64,000 nt of DNA from assembly GCF_964355755.1 (NCBI RefSeq), contig NC_092671.1:3844001-3908000 (forward strand), written 5' to 3'. The position numbers and the translations under genes were made by a program. This DNA is from Antedon mediterranea. Its lineage: Eukaryota; Animalia; Echinodermata. Under the pieces are notes generated by a model that saw only the letters and a list, made by a program, of their open reading frames with translations, was not told the DNA's origin and ran no database searches. This document shows, in pieces, positions 2,103 through 25,289 of the stretch (the stretch's first letter is position 1; every line of letters starts with the position of its first letter).

Positions 2103-2513
2103 TTAACTTCTCTCTGGCCCGCCTCCTCTTATCCTTACATTTTCAGCTTTCCTCACTTTAACAGCTTTTGTTTTCTTGGCTTTAAACCAGCCATCTGGTA
2201 AATGTTGTTTCTTATTACATGAATGACAAAGTGGTATAATGTAGTAAAATGTGTCTGTATCTGTTTCTCCTCTAATATAAACATGGGCTCCGTCAGTGGG
2301 TTCTTTGTTCCTTCCGTTTTTTGTGTCGCAGTATTCCTCAGTAGGGCATATTTTTGGTTTACTTGTTCTGCCAACGTTTTTTAACCAAAATTGTATCCAG
2401 CTTCCTCCACCGGGAGGCGATTTATCGTGCTGGCCGGTCAAACGTACGTTTTTCACTTCTTCACCAGCTACAATATCTCGTACAGGAAACCGTTCCTCGC
2501 CACCTTCAGCCAT
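2103..2513 (-). CDS. HNH-like Cys/His small protein, paralog 1 (136 aa, intronless)
   Basis: ATG at 2513 (MAEGG...). Motifs VKNV..T, SWIQFW, CPTEEYC, DGAHVY and IIPLCHSCN are shared with six paralogs in the window. Confidence 0.8.
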   Translation of the reverse strand: MAEGGEERFPVRDIVAGEEVKNVRLTGQHDKSPPGGGSWIQFWLKNVGRTSKPKICPTEEYCDTKNGRNKEPTDGAHVYIRGETDTDTFYYIIPLCHSCNKKQHLPDGWFKAKKTKAVKVRKAENVRIRGGGPERS

Positions 2514-3320
2514 ATTCGTCAGATACCCAAAACGGTAGTGTGGAAAAAACCAATACCAATCCAAAAAATAAGCAGTACGATTGCCTGGCTGTCGATTCGC
2601 GAATACAATAATTGTGAAAATATTTCTTGAAGGTTCGATGAGTCCATTATACTTATATATTTTAGGTTTATATCTAAAGGTTTTTGTCGTGATTAGCATT
2701 ATTACATGCGGGGTAAGTGTAAACAATGATAGTTTTGCTGAAAAGAAATATTTTGTGATAGTAGTATTTCATTGTCAAGTTTTTACTACAAAATTTGGTT
2801 AGAATAACATTACGTGTTATACGTTTCACAGTAGGTTCGTTTATATAATAACCGAATTGTGGACATTTGAGTGATTCTTTTTAAAAATGGATTACTATAT
2901 TAGCCTAGACTTCTATTCATTCAAATAATGAAAAATAACTAAAGAACTGGTTTTCAAAAAACTGTATTCTGCCGTCACCTATTTATTTATTATTTTTTTG
3001 CAACGTAAAAACATTCAAAAAATTACATACACATTATACACAAATATTGTTTAATATAATTAGTCGAGTTAAAGCCAGATAAAACAACTATGACGAACCG
3101 TCATCGGGATTCAAACCAGGATCTTCCAATAGTACGCCATGTACGGTAGCCTATTAAATGCCAATGAAAATGAGACACCAGAAATTTAAAAACATTTTGC
3201 TGCGATTATAATAGTCTTTAAAAACTATAAAAAAAACAATACGACGGTTCGCTGATTGAAGTGCAATAATAAGCTTAAAATCATTTTACAAAGAAGCTAA
3301 CTTGCCGAGAATGAGAAGCT

Positions 3321-4226
3321 TCTATATATAAAGTTACGTTAAGGGCAAAATTCGGTAAATCCCGCGTAACTTCTGTAATTTTTACACGATGGTATATAAA
3401 ATTGGTACATACTGTCGATACTGATTTTTAAAACTTACTGAAAACCATTACACTAATTAGGTTAAGTTAGATAATGAGTTATTGGCAATTGAAACGAATT
3501 TAGGTTCAAAGATTTGCCCCAAATAGGAGTGTTTTCCGATCGTGGTATACACACTGTATAATGGATGTCGATGCTGAAAAATACCCGCACACAAGAATAC
3601 GAGGATGCTTCGCATTTATCCTATCTCCTTCAAGTTCTACGATAATTGTTTTTAATAGCTGAAAATAGCTCGAGTACAGAATTATAATGTTGAAGAAAAG
3701 CCGATTTTCTTTAAAAAAAAATACTTTTTATACAAATGTATTGATTTGCGATGAAATCTCTCAGTCTCCCAGTATAATGATTTGGTTTAACACAAGTAGG
3801 TAAAGTTTTGGGCCCTTGGGGAAAAAACTTAAAACCTTTAGATATAGTATTGCAATACTGTACTTTGGCAATACAATACTGAGTGTGGGTATACTCTGTT
3901 ACATATATAAATAAACACATAATATACAAATAAACTTTATTACTGACAGTTGCTTCTCAACGTGTGTATTAATTAATAATCACTATAAAACATGAACAAA
4001 CTATTTCGTTACTGATTGGATAAAGAATATATTTAAAAATTGTTCCTCTTTGTACCCATCCTCTTCACCATCTCTCAATCCTAATGTTACATACAAAACA
4101 CAAATTGGGTTTATTCAAACATTTGGACTAATTTCTTTCTTAACGGTGAAATTACTGTGTATTCGAGAACCATCTGTGGGAACGACCTAGATGGGACACG
4201 AGCGAAGCGAACGTGCCACCATCTAG
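3321..4226 (+). mobile_element. Non-autonomous Helitron, copy A (internally deleted)
   Basis: 5' TCTATATATAAA..AAGGGCAAAATTCGG and a 3' GC hairpin plus CTAG|T. Homologous to 6282-7838, 31880-34230 and 43493-44959. A paralogous empty site lies near 1521-1575. Confidence 0.75.
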
Positions 4227-4269
4227 TACTCTATAATAAAGATAATTACTAATGTTGATCTACTTTGGA

Positions 4270-4605
4270 GCTTTACGTCAGGTGTTGAGTAATTTGTACT
4301 TTATACACTATACATTGAGCATAGTTCCGAATTCGCAAGTAATTCTCGGGTGGGATTCGAACTCACATCACTACTAGCCTGGCGTTCATACCTCTAGACC
4401 ACCGACCTTGCGATGATGGCTAGAGGTTAGATTCGAGCCCAAGTAAACAGTGGGTATTGTTTGTAACTATGTGGAGCAGCTATGCGTCAGAGTGTCGAGT
4501 ATCTGACCAAGAGTTAAGGGCTACTATTTTGAGTGTCACTTTCAATTAACAATGTTCCAAATATTAGTAGTACATTGTAGATTGTGTACCTTCATTGTTT
4601 TAAGT
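4270..4605. repeat. tRNA-derived interspersed repeat (SINE-like); other copies at about 1585-1695 and 13760-14085
   Basis: The minus strand has A/B-box-like TGGTCTAGAGG...GAGTTCGAATCCC. There are three copies in the duplicated blocks and no intact cloverleaf. Confidence 0.55.
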
Positions 4606-4616
4606 TATTCACCTTC

Positions 4617-4967
4617 CTATACTCCGCCACCTCTTCCTGTTATACGGTCGGTTTTCTTCACTTTCACAGCTGTTATATCATTGATTTCAAACCAACCTTC
4701 AGTTTCCCTGTGTTCGTTATTAATGCATGAACGACAAAGTGGTATAATGTAGTAAAATTTGTCTCTATCTGTTTCTCCTTCAATATAAACATGGGCTCCG
4801 TCAGTGGTTTTGTTGTTGCAATCTACAGCAGTGCATGATGTTGGTGGGTAGTCTGCTCCAACGCTATAGACCCAATAGTCAATCCAGCTTCCACCACCGG
4901 TAGGCGATAGATCTTTCGTGGTGACGTTCTTTACTCTTTTACCTTTTGCAATCTGTTTTCTAGCCAT
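4617..4967 (-). CDS. HNH-like Cys/His small protein, paralog 2 (116 aa, intronless)
   Basis: ATG at 4967 (MARKQ...). Motifs VKNVTT, SWIDYW, CTAVDC, DGAHVY and IIPLCRSCI. Confidence 0.8.
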   Translation of the reverse strand: MARKQIAKGKRVKNVTTKDLSPTGGGSWIDYWVYSVGADYPPTSCTAVDCNNKTTDGAHVYIEGETDRDKFYYIIPLCRSCINNEHRETEGWFEINDITAVKVKKTDRITGRGGGV

Positions 4968-6281
4968 ATTTATCAGATAACGAAACGGTAGTGTTGGCCC
5001 TAAACTAGTGTAAACAAAATCCAAAAGGAAGCAGTAACAGTAGTCTACGTTTTTAATTGGAATGATACATGCTGTCGATCGTGCATAGGCCTACACTTAT
5101 AATATTGTGAAGTGAAATGAGTCTATTACTTATGAATGAATGCATTATTATATCCGGGAAGAAGGAAACGCTTCCCTGATTATATACAATAGGTCATGTG
5201 GTGATAAATAATGACTCAAGTTTTGCTGAAAAGAAATCTGTTGTGATAGCAGTATTTCATTGTCAAGTTTTAACAACAAACATTTTGCTTAAAATATATA
5301 TTACGTGTACTTCACAGTAGGTTCATTTATACAATAACCGAATCGTGGGCATATAAATAAACGTACCATCATTAGTTTGATTATGTTTTTGACAAATATA
5401 CAAAACAGGCTAAAAGTAGGCTATTGCTAGCCTACCCGGAAAAATATTACGTTTACAATTTCAACAGACGTGTGATAGGCCTAATTGGAAAATATCTTTA
5501 ATCCACAGTTCTATCTTGTTTTTCAATTATAATGAATTTTGCTTTATTGGGTTTTAAATAATAAATAAAAAAAATATTGTCAAATATAGAGTCAACTGGA
5601 CCTAAATATGTGTATTTGTATACCTTTTTTATTTCAATGTTTACAATATATACATTATGTGAAAGTAGTAGCCTACGATATACGGAATATTAAAAATAAA
5701 AGACATTCTGAGGAGAATGTCGAGGGTGCAATAAATCCACAAACCATGGAATGTAGGCCTACCAATCAGTGTATCACTGGTAGGCCTACTACTGCTACGT
5801 TATAATATTGTTAGAATTTGGAAATTCCCCACATTTTATGGGCATGCATCCGTATGTAGACCGCTAATCAGCATGCCAATCCCTATAGTGTTTTCTTTCA
5901 ATATAGTGTCGTTAGCACGGTGTACAGTTTTATCCAAGTCTTCTTTCTCTATATAACTTTGCTAAATAGCCATTCTTGAATGTCAAATATTATTTATAAA
6001 ATTCTAATCTTAAATTTTGAAATAATTAATTCGATCATGATCAATGTATTCCAATTTTATACTTTTGATTGAAGGATATTTTTGAATTGTAAAAAATATA
6101 CACATCATTTTAGCAAAATAGCCTACAATGATTTCAGGCCTCAATGGTTGTATAAACCAGAAGCTCCTGAAATTAAAAGTGAAACTGATGGAGAAGTGCG
6201 TTTAAAAAATATTATATTATTTTCTGCAGGTCAGGCATATTTTCTCCGTAGCGCCCTCTATAAATTCAACTTCTTGAGACA

Positions 6282-7838
6282 TCTATATATAAATTTACGT
6301 AAGGGCAAAATTCGGTAAATCGCGCCTTACTTCTAGAATTTTTACTTGATGGTATATAAAGTTGGTTCGTACTTTCGGTACTGATTTTAACCACCTGATG
6401 TAACCCTGTTTACTAATTAAATTAAGTTAGATAATTAGTTATTGACGATTAAAATGAATTTAGGTTCAACGATTTGCCCCAAATAGGGGTGTTTTCCGAT
6501 CGTGGTATACACTGTCTAATGGATGTCCATCTTGAAAAATACCCGCCACAAAAATGCGAGGAGGCTTCGCATTTTCCTATCTCCTCCTACGATAATTGTT
6601 TTTAATAGCTGAAAACCGGTTGAACAGTTCGAGTACAGCATCATAATGTTGAAGACAGGCCGATTTTCTTTAAAAAATACTATTTTGATACATTTAATAT
6701 ACGTTTTTACAAATGTATTGATTTGTGATGAATGGAACATTCCAAATTATTTGGTTTAACCATACAGGTATAGATTTAGATTTATGGGCCCCCTCGGAGA
6801 ATAAACATAAATAGTATTGCAACGCTGTACAATACTGTTAAGGTATTTTAATGGTTAAAACCACTTTTGATCGCAATTTGAATCGCAAATTTCTTACTGT
6901 GAGTGTTGGTACTGTTAGATGTAATATAAAAATATATACAAATAAACTTTATTACTGTGAGTGTGGGTAGGCCCTACTGTTAGATTATAAACATATAATA
7001 TACAAATAAACATTCCAAATTATTTGGTTTAACCATAGAGGTATAGATTTAGATTTATGGTCCCCCTTGGAGAATAAACATAAATAGTATTGCAATGCTG
7101 TACAATACTGTTAAGGTATTAACCACTTTTGATCGCAATTTGAATCGCAAATTTCTTACTGTGAGTGTTGGTACTGTTAGATGTAATATAAAAATATATA
7201 CAAATAAACTTTATTACTGTGAGTGTGGGTAGGCCCTACTGTTAGATTATAAACATATAATATACAAATAAATAAACGTTATTACTGACAGTTGCTTCTC
7301 AACGTTTGTATTAATTAATAATTTAAAAATATATAAACGTCGTAGTGGTGTATCGTTACATGTACTTTACTATTTCAATCGACTATGACAGTGAAAGTTT
7401 TAACAAAGTACCGTATTAAATCGTAAATGTTTTACTGTATTTAGTGGTATATTATTTATAGGCCTATAAAACATTAAAAACAATATTTCGTTACTGAGTG
7501 GATAAGAATATATTTTAAAATGTTTCCTCTTTGTACCTATCTTCTTCCCCCATCCCTCAACCCTTAATGTTACATACAAAACACAAATTGGGTTTGTTTA
7601 AATGAGTCCAAATAAAAAAATTTGACTCATTTTGTTTCTCTCTCGGAAGTCATTCCCAGGGTGCTAATTTTGGTTGACTACATAAATAATTGTGTATATT
7701 TATTCGTTTCTGTAAACGACAATGTATTATAGTACATTTGAAATCTCCATTTTTTTCTCGCTGGAAATACTGTGTATTCGAGAACCATCTGTGGGCACGA
7801 CCTAGATGGTACGCGAGCGAAGCGAGCGTGCCATCTAG
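6282..7838 (+). mobile_element. Non-autonomous Helitron, copy B, with an internal ~273 bp tandem duplication (6737-7270)
   Basis: A|TC start, then CTAGATGGTACGCGAGCGAAGCGAGCGTGCCATCTAG|T end. Inserted between A and T with no TSD. Confidence 0.8.
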
Positions 7839-8350
7839 TATCTAATAATTGTACGTGTCTTCAACTTAAGTTATTTTGTTCCCAATCTGTAGATTTGATC
7901 GTGTATTTGTTCATATTTCACTTCAACGATCATAATTTCCATCCCGAATAACAATATGTGATTGTGATATCGATTTTTATCAAGTGGCAGGATGCTATCT
8001 AACTTTAATTTAATTACTAAGAACTTGGCCCGATAATAGTAATGCTGACTGGACTAATCGACAAATTATAAAGTGGACACCGGGATGGATCTGTTGACGT
8101 GATGACATTCTGCTCATCTACTTCCGATTGTTTACATTATAAAACATCTGCTGCTTTCGCCAGTCAACTGAATTATTTTGGTGGACGATGACGCGTCTTG
8201 TGTACTTGTCGGTGCTGCAAATGACACAGCGTATAGTAATGAGTTAGAAATTAAAATATGGCATACATTTTATTCGTTTTTTTGTCTTTCGAGTTAACAG
8301 TGCAATGGTTGATATAATTGAACGTGTGGATTGATACAATACTAGAAAAT

Positions 8351-11300
8351 ATGTCGTCGCTGCATAAGAAAAAACTAACCCGAGCTAAGGTTGTGGTGCT
8401 AGGAAATGAAGGGTGCGGTAAAACAGGTAAGGCCGGATAAGGGTTGGTTTTCATATGGTGTTCATTTGTGACTAAAATTATAACACACATGATTTGACAT
8501 TTTGAATATTTTTACAGTCAGTCTGGGCAGATCTGATTTTTATTTGGAGGAGAGAAGTTCCTCAAAAAGGGGAAGGGAATTATCATTCGAAGACCGAAAT
8601 TGTGTTTAGCCCACATTCAATTTTGATACTGTCATCGTTGGGAATAGAGTAGTACTATAATCGTGTCGGACTAACACATTATTTTGAATTGTATTTACCA
8701 TTATATTGTTACATAATATTTACCATAACTAAACATACGTCATGTTTAAACGTAAATGCTTATATTATATGGTCTCAATTATGATTTGTAATATTCAATT
8801 TAATAGCAATTATTTATATACCAACTATCTAACTGACATACATGGCATAACAATTAAACGTTTAAACATTAAACCTTATTATATGAAGAAAAACAAAATT
8901 ATGTATAAATATTATACTACAAATTAAACTATTGAGCAAATTCTACATCCAAACTGATTTATTACAATAGGTTGCAAATCTAATGCCCGTCTCACGAAAA
9001 ATGTAATACAGGTAAAACCTAACCATGCCCATCACTTTATTTATTCAGTTTATAGGCAAACTGGAGAAATGATATATACCACGGTCAATTTTTAGAAACA
9101 AAGCTAAAGTTCATAAACCAGTTTAATTGTACTTGACGTTTCAACAACACTGCTCGGATTCAATTAACTACCCCACAATCTACTAAACAACTTAACCCAA
9201 TCAAAAGAAAACTAGCTACTATAAACCTTCACAATTTTTAAAAATATTACTTTAATACATAAAATATGTTTACATATAATTTGAGGTACTGTGTAGCCAA
9301 ATTAATGTTTTAACAGATTTATTATATGACGTCATTAGGGTCTAACATTCTGATGAGCTTATAGCCTATATCGCTTGATTTCCTGTTGAAAATTATTTTC
9401 TTTATGCATACTTATACAGGATAGATAAGTTATTGATTTCACTAACTGACCCAAAGAATGTTACTGTTTGAAACAGATTTTTCTAAGTATGGATGAACTA
9501 CCGGTACTGTACGCTGCGCGGTAGCGACACTGACGGGACAAAACCTTATTTGGTATAACACAACAGAACATCTTTCGACTTTTAAAAACTGGCAGCTAGT
9601 TTTATTGTACTAATGACTGTAATACTAGTAAAACTTGATAGATCAAGTAAGTCTTAAAACATTCTTATAATAACCTTAAACAATTCTCACTCCTGAGGAC
9701 GATAAAAGTATATTGATCGAAAGGACGAGGAACTTAACAGTTCTTTTCAGAACTAATCATGGTGTACCGCAACATTTATATCACCTTCAAACAATTATAA
9801 TGTCAAGCACTTTAGAATCAGAGTTGTAACCTCTTTCATTCTTCCAAGTCAGAGTGTACTGAAAGGCTTGTTCACATCACAAAATTAAACATCAAATGTT
9901 GATATTTTGAAGAATCGAAATCATTTCCTCTGTGGGTCAGCTGACAAACATCATTGATTAAAAGTTTTTTTTTTTTTCGCTGCTTCGGCCTCTTTTACAC
10001 AATCGGGTATTCTCAATTTAAGGGCGTGCGTATTGTTGACAACGGAAAACCAACCATCTGTTTCCTCGTGTTTATCTTTATTGCATCCATGACAAAGAGG
10101 AACGATATAGTAAAACGTTTTTGATTCTGGTTCAATATGAATATGGGCTCCATCAGTGGCTCCGTTAGTACATCTATACTTGGCGCAATATTTTGGAAAT
10201 TCTACATTTCGTCGTCTTGGAAATTCTTTTCTAACCTCTTCGATCCATTTTTGTTTCCAAGTACTCCATGGCAGTACATGACAACTGGTAAATTGTGCGT
10301 TTTTTATTCGTTTATCATCAATTATTCGTATGCCTAATATGTTATTTACAGATTGGCTAGGATTAGCCCCACCAGCAGCCATACTCATTAGTTAGTAGTA
10401 CACTATTAGAAAGTGTAGCAAATGTTCAAACCAACTCACACATCCAAATGGCAAGCAGTACGTTTGTAATTGAAATCATCGTCGCGCACAGTTTTTGTAT
10501 TGTATTTGTTATTTTCTAAAATTACAATGGATACAATAATCTGAATTGATTAGTGAACCATGAACCATTCTGTTTATGTAATTTAAAACTTCCAATATGC
10601 ACTCCATTGGTGAGGTTGGGTTTCAACTTCTCCAACAGATTGAAGAACACATCAGTACAAACATAACGTAGTTGAGTATTCTTATCTCATTCTTTAACAA
10701 AAAAATATCAGTAAAAAAACTGAATGGAAAAGCGCAATGCAAAAACATTTTTGAGGGCAAGTTCTTGCTTAAAAATATTGAATTACTATATGAATCTATA
10801 TATGTTATATATGCTTTCATGTGGCAATTAATAATGTATGTTTCTGATTTTATAGCATTTACGGTTCGTCTTCTAACAAAGCGTTTTATCGGAGAATATT
10901 CACAAAACGAAGGTTGGTACATTCCTTATTATCATAGTCATAATACAGATGAATCATTCTCATAATTATTATCATATTAGTTGTAGTTTACGAAATAATA
11001 ATATACGATATAAAATGTGTTCATCAGGAAAGGAATGATTATTAGGCCTATGTATGTTTCCTTACCATTTAAACAACAAAATGAGTTATGACATTTTTAG
11101 TATTATTATCTTTTAATAAGCCTATTTTATTTTTTGTTTAAACTTAATAGCTGAAATGACGTATCGGCAAGCAATGGATTTTGCTGGTGAATGCATAAAT
11201 CTGGAATTACGGGATATTAAATCTGAACTACTGGTTAGTATCCTTGTTTCATTTTAAATTAACAATAATATTTATCAAATTATAGTATATTACAATTATT

Positions 11301-12116
11301 TTATTCCAAGGGTGTATTCAATATGATTTTTATATTTGATATCCGTGTTTGAGAGATATCAAAACCTTTCCCGCCAAATTTTAACTGGACAAGACCATCT
11401 TGGTCCACATAACAATAGGTTTGGTTTCCACTAACACAGCGCGTGAACGTACATGCCACATAGAGCTTGGTTCCCTCATCGGACGCAATGCAACAACGTA
11501 GGCACAACGCATGAATTGACCAACGACAAGCGAGAGTTTCATGATTCATCATCGCGTCGTGATTGGTCAATTGACCAATTGCATTGATTCATAGCCTATG
11601 GAAACCAAGCTATATAAATAATTTACCAATAACATCATTTCTTTAATGTTTCTTTTTAGTTAATAATCTTTATGATTATTTTATATTTTTCATAAAATCA
11701 AGAAAAAAGACGAATCGATTCAACTAGAGTCTGCTATAAAATGGGCCGATGGATTTGTTCTCATATACGCTGTTGATGACAGAGAAAGTTTCAATGCTGT
11801 TTCAGACTTCCGTAAATTCATTGACATTACAAAACGAACTGTAAACACACCAGCTATAATAGTTGGCAACAAAACGGACAGTGTGAACAGAGAAGTTACC
11901 AAAGAAGAAGGCGAGCGTATTTCCGAAAACCTTAAATGTCCATTTTACGAATTGTCTGTAGCCGAAAGCTACGAGGACGTTAAGACGAGTTTTGATGGAA
12001 TTCTCTTAGAGATGAGATCAGAATATTTCAAACATTTAGCGGCTGTGGAAAAGTTTTCTCGAGCAATTCATATGAAACCGTTTAAGTCGACACGGAGTCG
12101 AAGTAAAACAATGTAG
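8351..12116 (+). CDS. RERGL: RERG/RERGL/RASL11-type Ras-family small GTPase (209 aa, 4 coding exons)
   Basis: Exons 8351-8426, 10856-10912, 11151-11233 and 11703-12116, all GT-AG and phase-compatible, total 630 nt. G1 GNEGCGKT, TVRLLTKRFIGEY, WADGFVLIY, G4 GNKTD, G5 ELSVAE. The subfamily is confident; the exact orthologue is less so. Confidence 0.85.
9951..10388 (-). CDS. HNH-like Cys/His small protein, paralog 3 (145 aa), nested antisense in GTPase intron 1
   Basis: Motifs IKNAQFT, TWKQKW, CAKYRC, DGAHIH and IVPLCHGCN. It lies inside intron 8427-10855. Confidence 0.8.
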   Translation of the reverse strand: MSMAAGGANPSQSVNNILGIRIIDDKRIKNAQFTSCHVLPWSTWKQKWIEEVRKEFPRRRNVEFPKYCAKYRCTNGATDGAHIHIEPESKTFYYIVPLCHGCNKDKHEETDGWFSVVNNTHALKLRIPDCVKEAEAAKKKKTFNQ

Positions 12117-12809
12117 CGACATGTTACATCCGATTCAATTCTCTTTGCTGTATCTCCAGATATTATCTCCCCAGTATCAAGGCAAATTCTATAATACAGT
12201 AGTGTGCACATATTAATGGCATGTGTCGGTTGCATAGTTAGGACTTATGCTTATGACATGTGTGATACATCTGACACTGATCACAGAATTTTCCTGATAC
12301 TGAACAAATTACAGATACAGTACCGAGACTCGGCTAGACATAATGCTAATATACATAATAAAGTTAATTATTTATTTTCAAATATCTTGGATGTTTTGTT
12401 TTACAATAAAAATAAAGATTGTTACAAGTAGTGTATTCTTTATTGATAACAACATTTCATTTGTTTACAAGGAAAAGGAATATTGTAAGAATTATAAGAT
12501 CCTCCATACATTGTTATTGGTGAATTTAGTAAAACGTGGTGTGTACGAGAGTGGTGACGTCACTTGGTGATGATGGTAATGGTAATTATAGGGTTCGATG
12601 TTGATGATGATGGTATAAAAATGGTGATGATAACAATAATAATATTAAGCACAGCCTGAAATTACTTCAATATGCCAGAATAATAATATTCAAGTTGTTA
12701 TTACATCTAACATAGAAATGGTGCTTCTTTTTGATCGGTATACAATTACTGGTAATGGATTAGTACAACTGGGTACGGTCCTGTATTGTAAAGAGAAGAG
12801 ATTAAAGTT

Positions 12810-13145
12810 GAAGACCTCGATATTGCTTACAGTAGTATAATGTTAACAGTACCGATTTAAGGTAAAAAATAAAGACCGGTAATTTACACAAGGACACTGT
12901 TTAAAAGGAAAATGGAGACCTCGGTATTACTTGCAGTAGTAGAATGTTGACAGTACCGATTTACGGTAGATAAAGGACAGTCCAGTAATTTACACCTACA
13001 ACAATGTAACTCTGAGAGAAGTTTGACACTTCGATATCACTTGCAGTAGAAGAATGTCCACATGTAAAGTTGATGAAGGACAATCTAGTAATTTACACTA
13101 ATAGGACATTGTAGCTCCGAGGGAAGTTATACACTTAGAATATTC
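12810..13145. repeat. Degenerate ~105-110 bp tandem repeat, paralogous to 18270-18880
   Basis: Recurring CTTGCAGTAG.AGAATG...AGTAATTTACAC units. Confidence 0.6.
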
Positions 13146-13182
13146 CTAGCAGGAATATAATTTCAACAATACACAACACGCC

Positions 13183-13745
13183 TCATTTCGTGGCGTTTGA
13201 ATATTCATTTTCTTTGCTTTCTACTTCTTTGTTGCTTCCTATTTTCTCTATTGATTGTACATATGAATTTTTAGGAACTTTAACAGCTTCCGTACCATGG
13301 GCAACTTGAAAACAATCTTGATATATATTGCATTCATCACAAAGTGGAATAATAAAACATGTGCTTTCATCATAACCATTAATGTAAATATGAGCTACGT
13401 CTTCGTCTACTTTTCAGATTTTCAGATTTCAGATAATATTTATTTAGATAATAATGAATGAATATATACAAAATAGAAAAAAGATATTAAAGTGAACATA
13501 GATAAAGCAGTAATTGGTAGTCATTATTATCATGGATCCCTTCTAGAAGTTAAAAACTTGTCTCGTAGGGACCCACAACAAAACACTTTCATGCGACATC
13601 TAGGGCAGCGGTCTGGAAATTCTTGCTTAGCGTATTTGCACCATGTAGCTTTCCAAGACCCATCAGGTACTTTATCACACGATGTAAAGTGTGCGTTTCT
13701 TACGTCTTGTTCACCGTCAAGTATTTTTACATCAGCATCATCCAT
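13183..13745 (-). pseudogene. HNH-like paralog 4, disrupted by a 176 bp insertion
   Basis: Near-identical to paralog 6 on both sides of an insertion at 13414-13589. The 3' part reads DEDVAHIY...IIPLCDECN...SNATK* (TGA at 13183-13185). The upstream flank is replaced by a repeat from about 13756. Confidence 0.85.
13414..13589 (-). mobile_element. 5'-truncated non-LTR retroposon 3' end (CR1/L2-like)
   Basis: ACTTT duplication at 13409-13413 and 13585-13589. The minus strand has a GGGTCCCT...AGGGATCC stem-loop, AATAAA and an (ATCTGAA)n tail. Confidence 0.7.
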
Positions 13746-14473
13746 ATTTGTTTTACCCTAGTCTGAGGTAATTTGTACTTTATATACTAAGTACATTGAG
13801 AATACGAAAAATTCTTGGGTGGAACTCGAACCCACATCACTACTAGCCTGGCGTTTATATATCTAGACCACTGAGCTTGCGCTGATGGCTAGAGGGTAGA
13901 TTCAGCGGGTACTGCACCAACAGGATTGTAATTGTTTGTAACTATGTGGAGCCGCTTGCGTCAGGGTGTATCTGACCAAGAATAAAGGGCTACCATTTTG
14001 AGTGTCACTTTCAATTCACAATGTTCCAAATATTAGTACCGTAGTAGTAGACAGTTATGTAGATTGTGTACCTTCATTGTTTTAAGAATCCCACTAATTT
14101 TAGATCCGCATACTTTTCTTTGCTTGCTACTTATTCGATTGATTCCTTCTTCGTTGCTTCTTATTTCTAATTCTCAGTATCCAAAAAAGCACTCTAAAAA
14201 TGTGGTATTTATAAAGTAGTAATAGCAATGTTATTAACCAGATAATGTAGAAAGTGCTTGACACATAATGCAGAGCAGAATATAAATTAAAATCCGGTTT
14301 GTTTTATTTACTGACTGAACTGTCGACGTGAATTAGATTTTTAAAAGAAGATGAAAAAGAACAATAAAGTACATATATACGGATCCAATCAACTGATTTT
14401 GATTTGTATACAAGTATCAAGAGTTCTGAGTATAAGACTTCAATAAGCATCACGTGTGACAAAAAAAAACACG

Positions 14474-14839
14474 TTAGCCATTTCCCTCTGCTCCTCCTCT
14501 TACATGTACTTCTCTGGCTTTCTCCACTCTAACAGCTGTTATATTCTCGACTTTAAAATAACCATCTGTGTCACTGTGTTGTTTCTTATTACATGAATGA
14601 CAAAGTGGTATAATGTAGTAAAATTGGTTCCTGTTGTTTCTTATCTTTTTAAGATAAACATGGGCTCCATCCATGGGTTTGTTGTTGCAATCCACAGTAG
14701 GGCATTCTGTTGGTAAATCACTGCCAACTTTTTTGATCCAAAATGTTATCCAGCTAGTGCTACTTGAAGGCGATCTATCGTACGTACCGGTAAAAACTAC
14801 GTTTTTAACTTCCTCACTTTCAATATCCTCTAAATCCAT
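14474..14839 (-). CDS. HNH-like Cys/His small protein, paralog 5 (121 aa, intronless)
   Basis: ATG at 14839 (MDLED...). Motifs VKNVVFT, SWITFW, CPTVDC, DGAHVY and IIPLCHSCN. Confidence 0.8.
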   Translation of the reverse strand: MDLEDIESEEVKNVVFTGTYDRSPSSSTSWITFWIKKVGSDLPTECPTVDCNNKPMDGAHVYLKKIRNNRNQFYYIIPLCHSCNKKQHSDTDGYFKVENITAVRVEKAREVHVRGGAEGNG

Positions 14840-16119
14840 GTTTGTCAACCAAACGGTAGTATTATTATCTTCTTATCAAATCCAAAAGTCAAGTCTAATC
14901 GGAGGCCCACGTTTTAAACTTGAATGTATGCTGTCGATCGTGCATACAATTATATTGTGTGCATTTTGCTCAAAGGTTCAATGACTCTATTATACTTATT
15001 TATTTTAGGATGATGGCAGTTTTTGTCGTGATTAGCATTGTTATATACGTGTGGTGATAAACATCTTTTCAAGTTTTGCTAAAAAGAAATATTGTATGAT
15101 AGTAGTATTTCATTGTCAAGTTTCTACAACAAACATTTTTGTTAAAATATATATTACGTGTATTTGTCACAGTAGGTTCATTTATACAATAACCGAATTG
15201 TGGGCATATAAATAAATTGAATAATTCTTTTAAAATATGGATTACACAATAGCCAGTTTAGTAGAATGATATAGACAGTAATTTTATTCTTTCTTCCTCA
15301 AACTAACTAGAACCTTTTTAGCAAAATGAAGTCGGTGCTTCTATGTCTAGGTCATATACTTGATATGACATAAATTCACAATGCTAATAGATACCCAAAT
15401 TATGGCAATGTTTAAAACGTTTATTTCTCAAATTTCAATTCAATTCATATTTCAGTTTCCAGTGTTTTCAAATCCATGAATGCATTTTAACAGCTACAGC
15501 AATGTATTTTGCTTGAAGTACGAATGTAGAAGGTGAATAGATACCAAGAAACATTTAGGCCCGGAGGTTCTGAATGAAAAGCAAACACAAAATATTGTGC
15601 ACAAATACCACTAGCATGCGTATGCGCAACATAAATGCCTTAGCTAATTATACTGATTGGTTTGCTATTCAGTAGAACTGAGTTATTCCTTGATGGTTAA
15701 TTCTCAGTCTCGGTGCAAAAAAGGATGTGCATTTTTTCAACCACGCTCCATCCAACCTCCCTAATCTGCTTTAAAAACATGTAAGATTAACACACAACTT
15801 AGGCCTACCTACAATCGTATTATAATATTGTTATCTATCATCTATTACAGTAGTTTCGTTCTTACCTTTATATATATATACTGTCTAATCTATCTATCTA
15901 CTATCTATCTAATAAGTGAGATATGCATATAAAAATGATAAAACAAAAACCTCGAAAATGTGAGGCAAGCCATTATGATTCTATATTTTGAAAAACAGAA
16001 GCATAATGGACGTTTGCCTCCCTTTTTTGGGAGATCATGGGTTTGTTGTTCATACTGCATTTATAATATTGTTTCTGTGCTTTTCTGTTTTCACTAATCA
16101 TTTTATTGTGATTTTACAG

Positions 16120-17578
16120 CATTTACAGTTCGTCTTCTAACAAAGCGTTTTATCGGGGAATATTCACAAAACGAAGGTTGGTACATTCCTTTCCTTATGA
16201 AGCTTTTTAGTTTTGGGACGGTAGATCGACGAAGACAATAATTTATACAGAATATTAATCTGTAAAGGGGCGAGCCCTACGCAACGTTCCGTTTATTATC
16301 GGTAATGTATTCCGTCATTCTTATGATACTGTTCCGAAACGAAGACTCACTATTATTATCATCACTAACATGACATTAATAATCATTGGAATCATTGGTA
16401 TTGTCACGACGTCCATTAGTGTTTCGGGTTTTATTACGATCCAGTCTCATCTCTTTATAGCATGCGTATAGCATGCGTTTATCATAGAATGATTAGGCAT
16501 ATAGAAAAGAATGTATTATATATATAACCAGGGACTTCCGTAGTTATACTTCTATTTATAATAATACGTGTTAAGATTAAGAACTAAGTGATACACATTG
16601 TTTATATAATATACTATTGTAGGCCTATGTATATATTTGTTCCATGTGTTTACCTTAGCAGCTGAGATGACGTATCGGCAACCAATGGATTTTGCTGGTG
16701 AGTGGATAAATCTGGAATTACGGGATATCAAATCTGAACTACTGGTTAGTATCCTTGTTTCATTTTAAATTAACAATAATATTTATCGAATATTTAATAG
16801 TAGGCCTAGGCCTATATTACAATGATTGTATTCCAATGGTGTATTTTCCCGCCGAGTTTTAACTGGACAAGTCCATCTTGGCCCACATAACAATACTATA
16901 CGTTTTGTTTTTACTAGTATTTTAGCGCCACACAAAGCTTTTCCCTCCTCTGACGCAACACAACAACGCAGGCGCGGCACAACGCAAGTTATCCACCACC
17001 GCGTCGTGATTGGTCAAATTACATGTGGCGCGCTTACGTTGCGTTGATTCTTAGCTTATGGGAACCAAGCTATAAGTAATTCTACGAATTACATCATTTT
17101 TCTTTTTAGCCATTAATCTTTTTTAAGAATTAATTATTTAATATTTTTCATAAATCAAGAAAAAAGACGAATCGACTCAACTAGAGTCTGCTATAAAATG
17201 GGCCGATGGATTTGTTCTTATATAATCCGCAGATGACAGAGAAAGTTTCAATGCCGTTTCAGACTTTCATAAATTCATTGACATTGCGAAACGAACTGTG
17301 AACACACCAGCGATAATACAGTAGTTGGTAATAAAACGGAGAGTGTGAACAGAGAAGTTACCAAAGAAGAAGGCGAGCGTATTGCCGAAAACCTTAAATG
17401 TCCGTTTTACGAATTGTCTGTAGCCGAAAGCTACGAGAACATTAAAACGAGTTTTGACGGGATTCTCTTAGAGATGAGATCAGAATATTTCAAACATTTA
17501 GCGGCTGTGGAAAAATTTTCTCGAGCAATTAATATTAAACATTGTAAGTCGACACGGAGTCGAAGTAAACCAATGTAG
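16120..17578 (+). pseudogene. RERG/RERGL-like GTPase pseudogene (exons 2-4 only)
   Basis: Exons 16120-16176, 16662-16744 and 17160-17578. TAC>TAA stop at 17223-17225 and a 5 nt CAGTA insertion near 17319-17323. No exon 1 of its own was found. Confidence 0.85.
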
Positions 17579-18269
17579 CGGCACGTTACACCCGCTTCTC
17601 TGTACTGTATCTCCACATATTATCAAGTCCAGTTTCAAGGCAAATTCTATAATACATATGGCGGCTGCTTCATGTTATGGCTTAGTAACTCTTATGACCT
17701 ATGATACAGGCATCACATGCGATATATGTGACACTGTATCAAAGAATTTGCCTATGATACTGATTATATATAGATACAGTACCGAGAATCGGCTACACAT
17801 ACTGCTAATATACATAATAAAGTTGTTAATTATTTATTTTCAAATATCTTGGATGTTCTGTTTTACAATAAAAATAAATAAAGGTTGTTACATGTAGTGT
17901 ATTCTTTATTGATAACATTTAATTTGTTTTACAAGAAAAAGGAATATTATACGAATTATAAGATCCTCCATATATATATTGGTGAATTTAGTGAAACGTG
18001 GTGTGTACGTGTCGTGATGTCATTTGGTGATGATGGTAATGGTAATTATAGGGTTCGATGTTGATGATGACGGTGTAAAATGGTGATGATGATGACAATA
18101 TTAAGCACAGCCTGAAATCACTTCAATATGCCAGAATAGAAATAATAGTCAAGTTGTTATTACATCTATACATAGAAATATTGCTTCTTGATTGGTATAC
18201 AATTATTAGTAATGGATTAGTACAACTGGGTACGGTCCTGTATTGTGAAGGCAAGAGATTAAAGTTGAA

Positions 18270-18880
18270 GACCTCGAAATTGCTTGCAGTAGTTTAATGT
18301 CAACAGTACCGATTCACGGTAAAATTAAAGACGGTCCGGTAATTTACACATGGACAAATGTAACTTAACAGAAAGACGGAGACCTGTATTACTTGCAGTA
18401 GTATAATGTCAACAGTACCGATTTACGGTAAAATTAAAGACGGTCCGGTAATTTACACATGGACAAATGTAACTTAACAGAAAGACGGAGACATGTATTA
18501 CTTGCAGTAGTATAATGTCAACAGTACCGATTTACGGTAAAATTAAAGACAGTCCGGTAATTTACACATGGACAAATTAATGTAACTTAACAGAAAGACG
18601 GAGACCTGTATTACTTGCAGTATACTAGAATGTCGACAGACCAAGATAATTTACACCTACAACAATGTAATTCTGAGAGAAGTTGGACATCATGCAGTAA
18701 TTAGTAGTAGAATATCGACAGTACCGATGTGCAGTAAAGTAGATAAAAGACAGTCCAGTATTTTACACCAGGAAAATGTAACTCCGAGGAACGTTGGACA
18801 CTCGATATTACTTGCAGTAGAAGAATGTCGACATGTAAAGTAGATGAAGGACAGTCCAATTTACACTAGAACATTGCAGC
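18270..18880. repeat. ~109 bp tandem repeat (three near-identical units plus degenerate ones)
   Basis: CTTGCAGTAG recurs at 18283, 18392 and 18501, and the units decay afterwards. Confidence 0.8.
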
Positions 18881-18937
18881 AGGAATATAATTTCACAGTA
18901 TACAACATGTCTCATCTTGAAGAACCAATGGCCTTAT

Positions 18938-19324
18938 TTACTTTGAGGCGTTGGAATATCCATTTCCTTTGCTTTCTACTTCTTTGATCCTTCCTATTTT
19001 TTCTATTGACTGTAAATATGAATGTTTAGGGACTTTAACAGCTTCCGTACCCTGGGCAATTTGAAACCAATCTTGATACATATTACATTCATCACAAAGC
19101 GGTATAATAAAACATGTGCTTTCATCATAACCTTTAACGTAAATATGAGCTACGTCTTCGGCTACTTTCGTGCGACATCTAGGGCAGCGGTCTGGAAATT
19201 CTTGCTCAGCGTATTTGCACCATGTTGCTTTCCAAGACACTTCAGGTGGTTCATCACACGAGGTAAAGTGTGCGTTTCTTACGTCTTGTTCACCGTCAAG
19301 TATTTTTACTTCACCATCATCCAT
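18938..19324 (-). CDS. HNH-like Cys/His small protein, paralog 6 (128 aa, intronless)
   Basis: ATG at 19324 (MDDGEV...). Motifs VRNAHFT, SWKATW, CPRC, DVAHIY and IIPLCDECN. Confidence 0.8.
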   Translation of the reverse strand: MDDGEVKILDGEQDVRNAHFTSCDEPPEVSWKATWCKYAEQEFPDRCPRCRTKVAEDVAHIYVKGYDESTCFIIPLCDECNMYQDWFQIAQGTEAVKVPKHSYLQSIEKIGRIKEVESKGNGYSNASK

Positions 19325-21269
19325 ATTTTGTAACAATAAATGATCACACAAAATAGTAACTAAGAGGTAAGTAAGTTGTAAAAAAAACAAAACACATAAA
19401 TCCAACTGGCAATCAATATGGAATATACACTCATACCAAAGTCTATTCATTCATTCGTTCTTTCATTTGGTCAAAATCAATAAATGAATGATTGCTTTTC
19501 CTTTGAATTTAAATATGAATATCAATATTAATGTTTTTCATCACATCGCATTTCTGTATTGGTTTACAATTATTAATAGTGAATGACAATGGGGTTACCG
19601 TATGGCGATAATACACAACAACGCCTGTTTTGATAACTGACACTTTTTAATTTTCTCGGCTTTAAAATTCATTGGAATAATTGATTTTGTTAGGTTTTCC
19701 AGGTTGTTGTTTTGTTTTTATTCCCAGTTACAAAATGTCTATATGGCCTCGTGGAGTTATCTAAATGCATTGGAATAATTAATTACAATAGTGTGTAGTG
19801 GATTTACGAATCAGTTGGCTAATCGGTCGTCTACATTATAATATAGTATTGATATAAAGGAAAATCTCCTTAAATTAATTATATAACAAGGTGCTTTTTA
19901 GAAATGTATTATTGCAAAATGTTATCTTTTAAATGCATTGTATATAATAGTTGTGTTATATAGTAATATGACATTTGGGTATGAAGGGTCTCAACGCACA
20001 TACAGAGCCAAAATAACATTGTAAACTTGCACAGTGACGTGTATGGCCTCTAACCTAACCTAACCTTACGATCTTTTCATTTTTTCATGTTATCATTCTA
20101 AATATCTTATTTTCAAATTCTTTTGCATTCTTTTATTCATCTTTATTCATTTATTTCTTGGTGAAAAGGAGGGTATTTGATAGTCCTCCCCTGAGTTTAT
20201 TATAAGAGAATATAACAATGACCACTGTCATGAACGATTTTAATAAATTTTTATCGTCTTTTTATTACCATTTTGTTATTTATAAATTTTAATTAATTTT
20301 ATCATTGTAAATGAAGGCAAATTTGGTGTATGACATCGAAATCAATCATCTTATGTATATATAAGCATCACTGATATTTTGATAAGCATATATTTATTTA
20401 TTTTAACTACTTTAAACACTGTAACATAATAACGACATACAAATGCAAATAACGCCTCATGTTACGAAGCTTTCATTCGACACACGTGGTGTTAATTCGT
20501 GAAAAAAAAGAGACTAAGAACAGAAATTCAAGAGTTCTACTATCACAATTATTATTTAATTCCGCTTAAACACCATAAATGATTGAGACAAACAATAACA
20601 ATGGACGTATATTCAAATGTTATTGGAAAAAGATGATGTCATGGAATCAAAACAATGCTGTTAGTGCTATCCCGATCAAGGTCTTGGGTTAAGTTGTACT
20701 ACGTCACCAACTGTAGTTGTCTGAATATTACATCACAGTTTAATATAATACAAATAGATAATAACAGTAAAGTGTATGATATACCAAAACCAAAGAAGTT
20801 TTAAAATCATATTTAAAATCAAAAGAAGCAGCCATATGATGATATTTTGTAAAATGAAACATTTAACATTCAATTTAGAAATACTTAATACATTGTAACC
20901 AGTAAATAATCTAAATAACCGTAATATCCAAACAAACATACAAGCGATCTTCAATACAAATTTTACTGTTTTACAAAAGTTCTGCGAAAAATGATAATGT
21001 TGTTGAACCGACCAGAGTGTTACTGCTCTCTTTACTCTATCACCTCTTATCAGGTGTTTTACTTACAATCAGTCATGATAATTACAACAAATTCGATCAA
21101 ATTTAAAGCAAACTGCAAATGACAAGCAGTCGAACACAACATTGCAAATAAGTTGAACTGAAGCATTATACAGCATTGCTATAAATACATTAAAAACAAA
21201 TATTTGAAGCTTTCTTCTGAGTAGACGTCTGTGGTTCTTTACTGACAAAATGCTAATTCCCCAAGGTAG

Positions 21270-21526: not shown

Positions 21527-21865
21527 CTACTTCTTTGTTTTTTCACAGTCCTTTCTTGGCACTTTAACAGCTTTCGTACCGTTAACAACTCGAAACCAAC
21601 CTGAAACCCTCCTACTGCATTTATGACAAAGCGGTATAGTGTGCAGGTAATCATTATCAGTATATTGAACTTCAACATGGGCTCCGTCAGTGGGTTCCTC
21701 CGTGCCACCAAACCTAGCGCAGTGTCCTGGAAAATCTCTTGCTACGTGTTTGCACCATGTTGATTTCCAAGACCCATCGGGCGAATTATCACACCAGGTA
21801 GACGATGCGTTTTTTACTTTGCTATCACCAGGTATTGATATTATGGTAAAATTTGTATTAGGCAT
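21527..21865 (-). CDS. HNH-like Cys/His small protein, paralog 7 (112 aa, intronless)
   Basis: ATG at 21865 (MPNTN...). Motifs VKNASST, SWKSTW, CARFGG (second Cys lost), DGAHVE and TIPLCHKCS. Confidence 0.75.
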   Translation of the reverse strand: MPNTNFTIISIPGDSKVKNASSTWCDNSPDGSWKSTWCKHVARDFPGHCARFGGTEEPTDGAHVEVQYTDNDYLHTIPLCHKCSRRVSGWFRVVNGTKAVKVPRKDCEKTKK

Positions 21866-23729
21866 ATTTAGGTTGATACAGTATAATTCTTCAATAAACC
21901 AACACACAAATTATAATGACAAGTAGTACGTTTCCAGTTTGGAATTTTACTCATAGTGTCACGCCTATAATGAAAAGATTGTTTTTTTTCTCTTTAAAAT
22001 TTTAATAAGAATACAATCAGTATTCATGTATTTCATAACATCCTAACATATATTGCTTTTTTGGTCTACAATAATTAATAGAACGATGCGAGTACAATGG
22101 CTTCGATGGAACACTATGCATTAGAATAATTGGTTATCCGCACTTGGAGGATAACCTACTGTGATTATTATGAATCTTTTTTCCAAAACTATATTCTTAT
22201 TTCTTTTTGCCATTTTCTGTACAGATTTTCTCTAAAACTTGTAAAAAGAACATTATGAAACTTTGTCCGTATGAATATGAAATAACTTTAAATATCCGAA
22301 TGGTTACAACATTTCTTTATGGCTAGCTTCAAATCGACGTAATGCACTTGAACGTTTTACTGTTATTGCATCATGACATACTGTAGGCCTATAGTAATCT
22401 GTTTTTCTATCCAATGTTCTTATGACATTTGTCAGGACTCATTTTGGCGATTGGTTATCACAATGGAGCTATATGCCCACCTAATTTTATAAAGCTTTGT
22501 TCCAACTAGAAAGAGAAATGTCTGCCGCAACGTAAAGAACATACTCTGCTATTAGTTTGTGTTCATGAAAAAGAAACTAAAGAACGAAATTCAAGATACT
22601 GTATTCTACCTTCACCATTTTAATTCATTCCGCATAAAAGCATAAAATAAGAAAGCAATATGATTAATAATAAACATTATTGACATAATTATATCAAAGT
22701 TTAAAAAAAAGAATAATCTAATTTATGTCAACAGAGGCATTAGCCGGTCAGTAATTATATGGTAACTTTTTTTTCGGACTCAAAACAGTCACAGCTAAAA
22801 TCTTAAAAGCTAAAAGTTCATAAAGGATGATTTAAAATCTGGATGAAGTTAGTTTAAACAATATTTTGAGCGGTGCTTGTAACTTTCTTACACTTATTTC
22901 AAGATAGTAGGCCTAATCCAGTTTTAAGTTCGTGTTTAATATGTACCGTTCACTTGCATCTCACGGATGACCGGTAATAGTTGCATGATGAAGGTGTTGA
23001 TGGCGACGATGACTTATGATCGATATTGTTTCATGTTATTGAAGACTGAATTGAAGACTATTCTTTCTACACAATTTTCAACTTATTTAATTATCTATTT
23101 ACTAATTTATTTTACTTTTTTTTTTTAATTTTTTAAATATTTGTGTTACTCATCAATTTACTGTAACGAATTTTAAGTATACATGTTTAACATGTTATCG
23201 TAACTGGAATTATATAATTATTCGGTCCAGTCATTTAAAGATTTAATAAAACACTAATAAAACTAATAAAAAAACTAATATGTAGTGGTCCTAATGAGCC
23301 ATTTTTAAAAAATGATTTCCATTGGTAACAGCAGCATCAGCATTTTAAAATGTGCATAGTTCATTTTATTTGTTTTAAATACAATTGCGTAAATTTAGTT
23401 AAAGTTAGTAACACAGAAAAAGATAATAATATTTGAGAAATACAATACTCTGATAAACCATTAATTAGCCTAACTTAGTTGATTAAAGAGCATAATTTAA
23501 TGTAGCATAATTTAATGTGGAATAAAAGAAGGAAGCGTTTCGTTCTTACCCTAAATCGCCTTCTAGAGCTTAACCATCGATAATTACTATAGAGTGGATG
23601 GGACAAAAAGATTGAGAAAGGAAATGTGGAAACCGAACCCACACAAATGGAAGTAAATAATGCTGATTCTGATTGGTAACAAAAAATCTTGGCTACAACT
23701 GGGTCCATAAAAGGGTGACGCACATTATT

Positions 23730-25289
23730 TTAAGGCATACATGTCTCACTTTTAAAACTACAGGCACAATGAGAAAATGCCGCCTTATAATAACAACAAG
23801 CTTTCTTAAAGTCACATATCTTTTCATGTAGCTCTGCATTTTTTAGCATAGATGCTACTTTATTTTGACCTTGCAAACTTTCGATTTCAAAACATCTTTT
23901 TAAGTACTTAATAATCACATCAACCTCACTCTCTTGCTCATCTATGAATTCGATGGATCCATTTCCACTGTTCTTTACGAATGACTGAAGAGCAATATCT
24001 AAACAATCTTGTTTTCTGGACACTGCATCGTTAAATTGTTTTCTCAATATAAGATAATATGAATAGTCTCGGTTTGCGTCAAACAATACAAATGGATCGT
24101 GTTTAAAATCAGATAATATACTTTTATAAACAGCAGTCACAGCCTCATGGTCTTCCAAAAAAGCCAAGACACGTGCCTTCGATAGTTTGGCTCTGGCATA
24201 ATATGGGTCCAGTCTAATTACATTGTCAAGACACTTCAATTGGTTGTTTGCGTCGTTCATTCTCCGGTAAAGAAGCGCCTCTTGAAAAACGATACGCGAT
24301 GATTCATTGCAATTTTGCTTCGCATATTCAATAACTTTACGAGCTTCTTCAAAGTATATTGAATCTTTAGGCTCACTGCAATTCTTCTTGTTTCCTTCCA
24401 CTCTTCTGCATCTACAAACACCCATTTGGATATAACAGTTAGCTATGCGACTTAATATGGCTGGTCCAAAAGCGTTTTGTTTTGCTTCCGTGAGTAGCTT
24501 CATTATTTGTTGTACACGAGAATCATCCTCATCTTCAAATACAAGACTGTGGCCAACATCTTGTTCGGATGATGTACGGTTCATAACCTCTTGTTCATAT
24601 TTTCTTCTGTGTATATCAGCTAGTATCGTCTTGGCATAGGCATGATCAGCATCTAGTTGCAAGACGTTCTTCATGATTTCTTTAACACCCTTCATTCCAT
24701 CAGACCCCTGGGACTTATGCATATTTAATTTTTTTCTTCGCCATGTTATGAGTCCAAGCATAAACCTCCACTCGACATTTTCTGGGCATTTCTCTGTTGC
24801 TAGTTTGAGCTCAGTCTCACTTTCTTCGTACCTAGAAAATAACAACATAGACAGCGCGAAGCCTTTAGTCGCATGAACACTTGCTTGAAACTTGTTTTTG
24901 TCCTCTTCTTCCATATCCTGATATGTTGTAAGCAGATATTTGAGTTCTTTGTAGATGATTTCCTGTTCTATTTGATTAGTCGTAAACCAACACTTTAATG
25001 CCAAATGTATTGATTTATAACCATCTTTGATTGATTCAGTTGTATCTAAGTCTGTTATGGCCCAAAATGCTTCCTCATTTTTTTCTTTCGCTTTTGCAAT
25101 ATCCTTCTTATCGTTTCCATTAAAATCTGACATGTATAAGTAGCTTTCGAATAAAAGAGCTTCTATGACGAACGATTTCTTATCCTCCTGGTGTTCAATA
25201 GATTGTTTTAAGGATTTAAATGATTGACTTCTATTTTCAAGTTCCCAATTAGCATGAAAGTTAATATCTTGTAAATTCATCGGTTCCAT
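23730..25289 (-). CDS. IFIT/TTC22-like tetratricopeptide repeat protein (519 aa, single coding exon)
   Basis: Long uninterrupted ORF with ATG at 25289, just after an acceptor (ttttcttttggcag, ~25316). N-terminal FHANWEL resembles IFIT CHFTWNL. KGFAL..RYEESETELKLATEKCPENVEW and VLQLDADHAYAKTILA resemble IFIT TPRs. Further TPR-like units include CLDNVIRLDPYYARAKLSKA. Confidence 0.75.
   Translation of the reverse strand: MEPMNLQDINFHANWELENRSQSFKSLKQSIEHQEDKKSFVIEALLFESYLYMSDFNGNDKKDIAKAKEKNEEAFWAITDLDTTESIKDGYKSIHLALKCWFTTNQIEQEIIYKELKYLLTTYQDMEEEDKNKFQASVHATKGFALSMLLFSRYEESETELKLATEKCPENVEWRFMLGLITWRRKKLNMHKSQGSDGMKGVKEIMKNVLQLDADHAYAKTILADIHRRKYEQEVMNRTSSEQDVGHSLVFEDEDDSRVQQIMKLLTEAKQNAFGPAILSRIANCYIQMGVCRCRRVEGNKKNCSEPKDSIYFEEARKVIEYAKQNCNESSRIVFQEALLYRRMNDANNQLKCLDNVIRLDPYYARAKLSKARVLAFLEDHEAVTAVYKSILSDFKHDPFVLFDANRDYSYYLILRKQFNDAVSRKQDCLDIALQSFVKNSGNGSIEFIDEQESEVDVIIKYLKRCFEIESLQGQNKVASMLKNAELHEKICDFKKACCYYKAAFSHCACSFKSETCMP

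Follow-up and report, generated by a model that had tools for sequence, protein, structure and literature searches.

A predicted His-Me finger gene array beside a truncated TPR gene in the crinoid Antedon mediterranea: two families, likely not one module

We analysed a window of 64,000 nucleotides of AT-rich animal DNA from the crinoid Antedon mediterranea (contig NC_092671.1, positions 3,844,001 to 3,908,000; coordinates below count from the first letter of this stretch). Its minus strand carries seven paralogous small Cys/His genes (p1 to p7), recovered by a six-frame listing and self-comparison (pairwise tblastn E 1e-32 to 1e-3), and a tetratricopeptide repeat (TPR) gene made of a single open reading frame (ORF). 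The reading that we favour, with a probability of about 0.6, is that two separately evolving families stand side by side here, an array of small genes for predicted His-Me finger nucleases that likely act in defence and a crinoid TPR family represented by a truncated copy, and that they likely do not form one module. Both families are unnamed, and both likely have a role in defence.

Locus layout and duplication history

Six of the small genes have open frames and p4 alone is split. They share their strand with the TPR gene, whose stop codon lies 1,864 bp from the p7 ATG, in agreement with the original prediction, which had described seven small genes and a single-ORF TPR gene about 1.9 kb upstream of p7. 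That prediction also proposed birth-and-death duplication, and duplicated blocks as well as decayed copies are indeed seen in the window (Table 1). The blocks carry exons of a Ras-like gene, and in the window self-comparison no self-similarity block longer than 82 bp touches the TPR region (21900-27500); the unit of duplication is therefore a Ras-like gene plus a small gene, not the TPR gene plus a small gene. Decay after duplication was reciprocal: Ras-like gene A is intact where p4 is broken, and Ras-like copy B is broken where p6 is intact. The insertion that splits p4 was considered as a GT-AG intron and rejected by hand, with no frame-keeping splice found. In run X1, one contig joins 21024-21603 with 11391-11731, which suggests an array haplotype that is rearranged or differs in copy number; this run is only guessed to be RNA and covers intergenic DNA too, and its absent cover at 23583-24216 is uninformative.

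The small-protein family

A profile of six paralogues retrieved 1,344 clusters at E <= 0.001, and the family spans bacteria, giant viruses and cnidarians. Most of the 20 top matches that were looked up are unnamed; among those with a name are the cnidarians Dendronephthya and Clytia. The family has relatives across many bacterial phyla (80 of 125 loci were kept), 26 viral loci carry members, four of them giant-virus assemblies by name, and the ESM Atlas holds a 534-member cluster in which Nucleocytoviricota are commonest. A bacterial member gave one plasmid match and no phage match. Viral loci L096-L117 form a close-knit clade, giant-virus assemblies included. A quick tree was built from 117 rows (six paralogues, top matches, every second bacterial locus and 11 viral loci). 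In it the paralogues and two unnamed proteins form one group (Shimodaira-Hasegawa-like approximate likelihood ratio test, SH-aLRT, 98); the deeper forks are mostly unsupported, and we propose no donor. Two proteins that group with the window paralogues in this tree, P0008 and P0013 (259 aa), carry ahead of the small domain a fused N-terminal domain which we take to be GIY-YIG-like (no Pfam or NCBIfam match).

The family was aligned over 132 sequences, comprising the six paralogues and 126 of 150 listed matches (longer ones were left out). A candidate catalytic His is present in 131 of these and in all six intact paralogues. The predicted metal-binding position at the start of the helix is Asn in 125 sequences and His in three, and is Asn in four of the six intact paralogues (not in p2 and p7). 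There are four zinc-type ligands, an upstream pair (Cys in 130 and 123 sequences), the Cys of PLC (132/132) and a Cys or His (127). In the p5 model the His lies on strand 57-63, followed by a second strand and by a short helix opening with CxxCN. Set beside the His-Me finger (HNH, beta-beta-alpha-metal) as defined in the parts of PMC5714182 used here, this predicted anatomy is a His-Me finger signature. With His-Me finger nucleases that have a zinc knuckle (HNH_5, DUF968, Septu PtuB), the small proteins share the His on the first strand, the Asn in the first helix turn after CxxC and a second Cys pair upstream, and the spacing from His to Cys is 20 residues, as against 19 in the bacterial HNH protein L064. 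Weak matches point the same way: HNH_5 (E 0.31), DUF968 (E 0.039) and HNH (E 0.0065) in Pfam, HNH in PHROG (E 8.5e-5, in one of the 132), PtuB in PADLOC (E 0.001-0.006, single members), IscB in NCBIfam (E 0.08) and an ESM Atlas hint at 0.75.

Several points weigh against this assignment. The residue preceding the His is Ala in 105 and Gly in 15 of the 132 sequences and not a metal ligand, the loop Asn is absent and an aromatic residue takes the loop position, and two invariant Trp in the N-terminal helix are foreign to the known nucleases. An acidic residue or His before the catalytic His and an Asn in the loop are frequent in His-Me fingers but not found in all of them, and the zinc knuckle is an optional trait. 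No Pfam family matched the small paralogues at its cut-off, and HHalign of the family against seven HNH proteins reached no more than 17.9%. Neither Foldseek against the PDB nor a wide VIA search (best Z 2.4), a viral library or a second VIA look yielded a structural match for the small protein, though a core of this small size can escape such searches. Because the fold searches were empty, the HHalign score was weak and Ala precedes the His, we go no further than predicting nuclease activity for a zinc-stabilised His-Me finger; that the small genes encode active defence nucleases has slightly less than an even chance. If they do, each small protein would cut nucleic acid alone, inside the cell, with the His serving as general base and a metal bound by the helix Asn.

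The full predicted catalytic and zinc set is kept in p1, p3 and p5, whereas p2 lacks the Asn and p7 lacks both the Asn and one predicted zinc Cys. Ratios of nonsynonymous to synonymous substitution rates (dN/dS) range from 0.36 to 1.0 over 15 paralogue pairs and are near 1 for p1/p2, p1/p5 and p6/p7; six of the seven frames are open and the motif is kept at dS 0.3-1.6. Such divergence may mean either that the genes change fast while still partly constrained or that selection on them is relaxed; that values near 1 also fit the latter counts against the favoured reading. If the change is fast, it would reflect a role in conflict. A protein collection contained none of the five intact paralogues (out of six) that were sought in it, and a word-based search with p5 was also without a match; for this reason the small genes appear to be unannotated.

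Bacterial neighbourhoods of the small family

At all 80 bacterial loci the family member is a stand-alone gene of 90-110 aa. We listed up to three ORFs on each side of these loci, 498 in total. A cluster of AAA-ATPases adjoins 15 of the 80 loci and a cluster of RloB proteins 12 (two of each were confirmed by Pfam); the two together presumably represent AbiL. Pfam searches of 106 chosen ORFs found Eco57I, HaeII and C5 methylases, HsdS, OLD, GmrSD, DndB, DncV, ThsB TIR, Schlafen, DUF4145, SieB and HNH, together with housekeeping genes and a large number of unknowns. Across 151 genomes from a single phylum RloB was matched 36 times; against this background we estimate the probability of the RloB adjacency arising by chance at well under 1%, with loci that are partly kin. 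The bacterial relatives of the small genes thus often neighbour defence genes. Against this result, kinship among some of the loci reduces the 15 and the 12 to a few independent events, and the background was counted for RloB only.

These data bear on the alternative that the locus is neutral clutter, i.e., an unstable, repeat-rich region in which a Ras-like gene, non-immune zinc-finger genes that bind zinc or nucleic acid and do not cut, and a TPR pseudogene have come together. The empty fold searches, the dN/dS values near 1 in several pairs, the reciprocal decay (p4 beside Ras-like gene A, Ras-like copy B beside p6) and the empty protein look-ups (0/5) would all suit it. The frames that stay open with their motif at such dS, the His and Asn kept across the 132 sequences, and the bacterial defence neighbourhoods argue against it, and we consider it unlikely. 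For both families, an immune role in the animal is to be regarded as putative.

The TPR gene as a truncated member of a crinoid family

The TPR protein has TPR-type Pfam matches, all below curated cut-offs. About 26 nt ahead of its ATG there is a site resembling a splice acceptor. All of its close homologues are labelled crinoid (A. mediterranea and Anneissia japonica). P0002 (829 aa, 57% identity to the window copy), P0157 (935 aa) and P0003 of Anneissia (870 aa) align over the whole window protein and then run on; a further paralogue, P0158 (546 aa), is without the N-terminal part. P0157 is encoded on another contig, and accessions of the TPR paralogues are XP_071941227, XP_071943583, XP_071956018 and XP_033122939. 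About 36 aa are missing from the interior of the window copy, which also has an early stop. Past this stop, 14 codons still align with P0002 before the similarity ends (Table 1), and the C-terminal module was not found in six frames of the window (best profile match E 0.008). On these alignments the window gene is a C-terminally truncated copy of a crinoid TPR-effector family of 829-935 aa, with the reservation that the stop rests on the present assembly and its NCBI annotation.

The C-termini of the longer proteins are of two kinds. That of P0157 is a caspase (PF00656 at 700-931, E 1.7e-60, with the SHG and QACQG dyad motifs), and those of P0002, P0003 and P0158 are a helical module of about 170 aa with N-x-x-K-H; a caspase and a helical domain are swapped on one TPR scaffold. 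A constant repeat scaffold with an exchanged nuclease or protease effector is shared with modular sensor-effector immune proteins (NLR-like, TPR-caspase and TPR-CHAT; passages of PMC8195603), whereas the crinoid family differs from NLR-like sensors in that no NTPase domain is seen. A full-length TPR protein would catch a ligand within its superhelix and thereby activate the effector at its own C-terminus. The copy in the window, which has no effector, is likely decaying or a decoy.

The original prediction called the TPR protein IFIT-like. This stands as a general resemblance of the TPR superhelix and not as membership of the IFIT family. The model of P0002 (pLDDT 68.5) is an all-helical TPR superhelix, and in Foldseek IFIT1 and IFIT5 (E 7e-7 to 2e-5, target template modelling score (TM) 0.46-0.50, the highest among the natural proteins listed) were matched. 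IFIT1 ranks 4-6, behind CTR9 and SKI3, and OGT is also among the matches. VIA placed LGN first (Z 20.2, root-mean-square deviation (rmsd) 5.3, 296 aligned residues) and IFIT2 at rank 19 (Z 15.2, rmsd 12.7, 322 aligned). In sequence, no IFIT chain of the PDB was matched at E <= 1 by the single protein or at E <= 10 by a shallow three-sequence profile. The coding sequence lies in one exon, as in IFITs, and a superhelix of similar length and an expansion with decayed copies are also shared with the vertebrate proteins. An N-terminal H-x-x-W-x-L motif presumably resembles that of IFITs. In IFITs a basic pocket binds RNA 5' ends; the net charge over the first 520 aa is near neutral. Matches to other TPR proteins are of equal or better quality, however, and the full-length crinoid members carry a fused effector, whereas the IFIT family, as presented in the sections of PMC3688568 used here, is restricted to jawed vertebrates, with invertebrate TPR matches falling outside. 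The TPR protein may work like an IFIT, but a common origin of the two families is doubtful.

The helical module and its bacterial relatives

A weak genome match, L082, led to seven further bacterial proteins. HHalign of these eight against the crinoid helical module gave 95.7% (E 8.5e-9, 95 columns, both motifs covered), a test that is not fully independent because L082 was picked by its likeness to the crinoid module. The other eight of the nine weak matches in 800 scored genomes were dropped as chance, L082 alone showing both motifs. A search of 391 genomes from a third phylum did not find the module, which also had no plasmid match and reached at best 0.77 in the ESM Atlas, with no family. 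The bacterial proteins (L082, L091, L092, L120-L123 and L125) are about 240 aa long, share the pattern RSxLDY...FP...QP...W...NxxKH, and are a candidate new HEPN-like defence protein.

Two of the bacterial genes lie inside type I restriction-modification operons; one member stands between HsdM/S and HsdR, one between HsdS and Fic, and one near a TIR gene. In the portions of PMC3710099 used here such contexts are typical of HEPN RNases, and section 6 describes HEPN families that keep only the His. The His of the module is invariant in 3/3 crinoid and 8/8 bacterial sequences, as N-x-x-K-H, and the helix order in the full-length P0002 model is compatible with two helical hairpins in which an insert separates helices 2 and 3. 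Two observations speak against the assignment: the Arg of the HEPN Rx4-6H motif is absent, and the module is without a match in Pfam, PADLOC, NCBIfam and PDB, HEPN models included. Motif, helix order and context make a HEPN-like nature likely, to be treated as a lead because of the missing Arg and the empty libraries; that the module is a HEPN-type RNase seems to us somewhat better than an even bet. With the DZIP3/hRUL138-like and LA2681-like HEPN proteins, which are joined to TPRs or stand next to them, and the PrrC/RloC HEPN RNases of restriction-modification operons, as far as they are treated in the relevant passages of PMC3710099 and PMC9646362, the crinoid family shares TPRs joined to a helical module with an invariant His, an invertebrate lineage expansion, and bacterial homologues in type I restriction-modification operons. 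It differs from HEPN proteins in having N-x-x-K-H in place of Rx4-6H and no Pfam HEPN match, and from TPR-HEPN proteins in that a caspase replaces the module in one paralogue and the window copy has none.

One sensor/effector module?

The original prediction joined the two families into a co-regulated antiviral module. In such a module the TPR protein would sense foreign RNA and recruit or activate the small nucleases in trans, and in the strongest form an effector-less copy would have been re-paired with the array. The common strand and the spacing of 1.86 kb are what such a pair might show; the TPR family is modular and its window copy effector-less, IFIT1 and IFIT5 are among the top structural matches of the P0002 model, and the 519-codon frame stays open at its distance from the paralogue. 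Against this, the TPR gene lies in no duplicated block and the co-duplicated partner of the small genes is the Ras-like gene; p7, the nearest paralogue, is degenerate; VIA ranks LGN, and not an IFIT, first; the effectors of the TPR family are in cis; and none of the 498 ORFs at the 80 bacterial loci resembles the crinoid TPR protein or its helical module.

Regulation was addressed by scanning 1.5 kb upstream of eight start codons (seven small genes and the TPR gene). No interferon-stimulated response element (ISRE) or NF-kB site is shared among the eight regions, and the TPR gene has neither within 1.5 kb of its ATG. ISRE-like sites in the window are at chance level (7 vs 5.4 expected), and NF-kB-like sites number 6 (one palindrome counted twice) vs 1.3 expected, one of them within 1.5 kb of a start codon. 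Since the regions were set from the ATG and not from transcription starts, the missing shared motifs are weak evidence for keeping the two families apart. The NF-kB-like sites lie at 5820, 30897, 31299, 39147 and 39371, four of them 5.6-14 kb upstream of the TPR gene.

We therefore find one joint module improbable. What survives of the antiviral proposal concerns each family separately, namely that bacterial relatives of the small genes lie near defence genes and that the TPR family has caspase and likely HEPN-like effectors.

A functional pair of a small gene and the Ras-like GTPase is proposed because the genes are nested (p3 sits antisense in intron 1 of Ras-like gene A) and duplicated together (exon 1, and exons 2-4 with p4/p6); the opposite strands, and the decay of copy B beside an intact p6, are as passive co-duplication predicts, and we judge this pairing very improbable. 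Least of all do we expect the whole of a joint reading to be true, in which an IFIT-related TPR sensor with a swappable caspase or HEPN-like RNase and new antiviral His-Me nucleases, both shared with bacterial defence islands, meet at this locus and an effector-less sensor acts in trans with the array. Its parts are likelier than the whole.

Two separately evolving families are thus preferred, and their meaning is best stated for each. If the small genes are defence nucleases, an unnamed family is common to bacteria, giant viruses and invertebrates and has been missed by annotation here. The TPR family would add a case of an animal sensor scaffold on which death or RNase effectors are exchanged, and is a candidate route by which effector-less IFIT-type scaffolds arose. 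A two-gene module, if true, would matter more, and the support for it is small. Lineage expansions of conflict-type effectors and invertebrate TPR-HEPN fusions are already known (parts of PMC3710099, PMC9646362 and PMC8195603). Neither family was found described in the literature searched, mostly by listing, and the supplements of PMC3710099, PMC5714182 and PMC8195603 may list them; the part of PMC9334734 used here held nothing bearing on either.

Other features of the window

Ras-like gene A, which we take to be RERG-like, has the P-loop, NKTD and ELSVA; its G3 motif is DIKS instead of DTAG and its switch II is atypical.

Table 1. Positions of the genes, gene remnants and duplicated blocks in the window
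Feature	Position	Strand	Description
p1	2103-2513	-	136 aa; full consensus (C..C, DGAH, PLCxxCN)
p2	4617-4967	-	116 aa; Ile in place of the family helix Asn
p3	9951-10388	-	about 145 aa; full consensus; nested in intron 1 of Ras-like gene A
p4	13183-13745	-	duplicate of p6; 170-bp insertion at 13414-13583; likely pseudogene
p5	14474-14839	-	121 aa; full consensus; AlphaFold model pLDDT 87.8, strand-strand-helix core
p6	18938-19324	-	128 aa; DVAH for DGAH; CxxC knuckle and CxxCN kept
p7	21527-21865	-	112 aa; one knuckle Cys missing; CxxCS, with no helix Asn
TPR gene	23730-25289	-	single ORF, 519 aa; no C-terminal module
Codons past the TPR stop	23688-23729	-	14 codons aligning with P0002; similarity ends beyond
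Ras-like gene A	8351-12116	+	exons 8351-8426, 10856-10912, 11151-11233, 11703-12116; open 209-aa frame
Ras-like copy B	16120-17578	+	pseudogene; only exons 2-4 present, with a frameshift in the last
Second copy of Ras-like exon 1	157-232	+	inside block 1-277
Duplicated block, Ras exons 3-4 and p4	11135-13749		partner 16647-19328 (Ras-like copy B and p6); 80-93% identical in pieces
Duplicated block around p1	1681-2905		partner 14069-15254 around p5; 73% identical
Duplicated block	1-277		partner 8193-8470; 90% identical

Elsewhere in the window, exons of a CIP2A-like gene lie at 54323-57096 on the minus strand (PF21044 in 3 of 82 frames scanned). A dispersed repeat family has four copies (3318-4237, 6281-7839, 31878-34231 and 43490-44961), and two tandem arrays with units of about 150 bp occupy 48671-50323. 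Fragmented frames at 36805-37980 on the plus strand, without a Pfam match, presumably are the remnant of a DNA transposon. A retroelement of the long interspersed nuclear element (LINE) type lies at 58440-62940 on the plus strand, with an open ORF1 of 273 aa and an endonuclease/reverse transcriptase ORF of 1029 aa.

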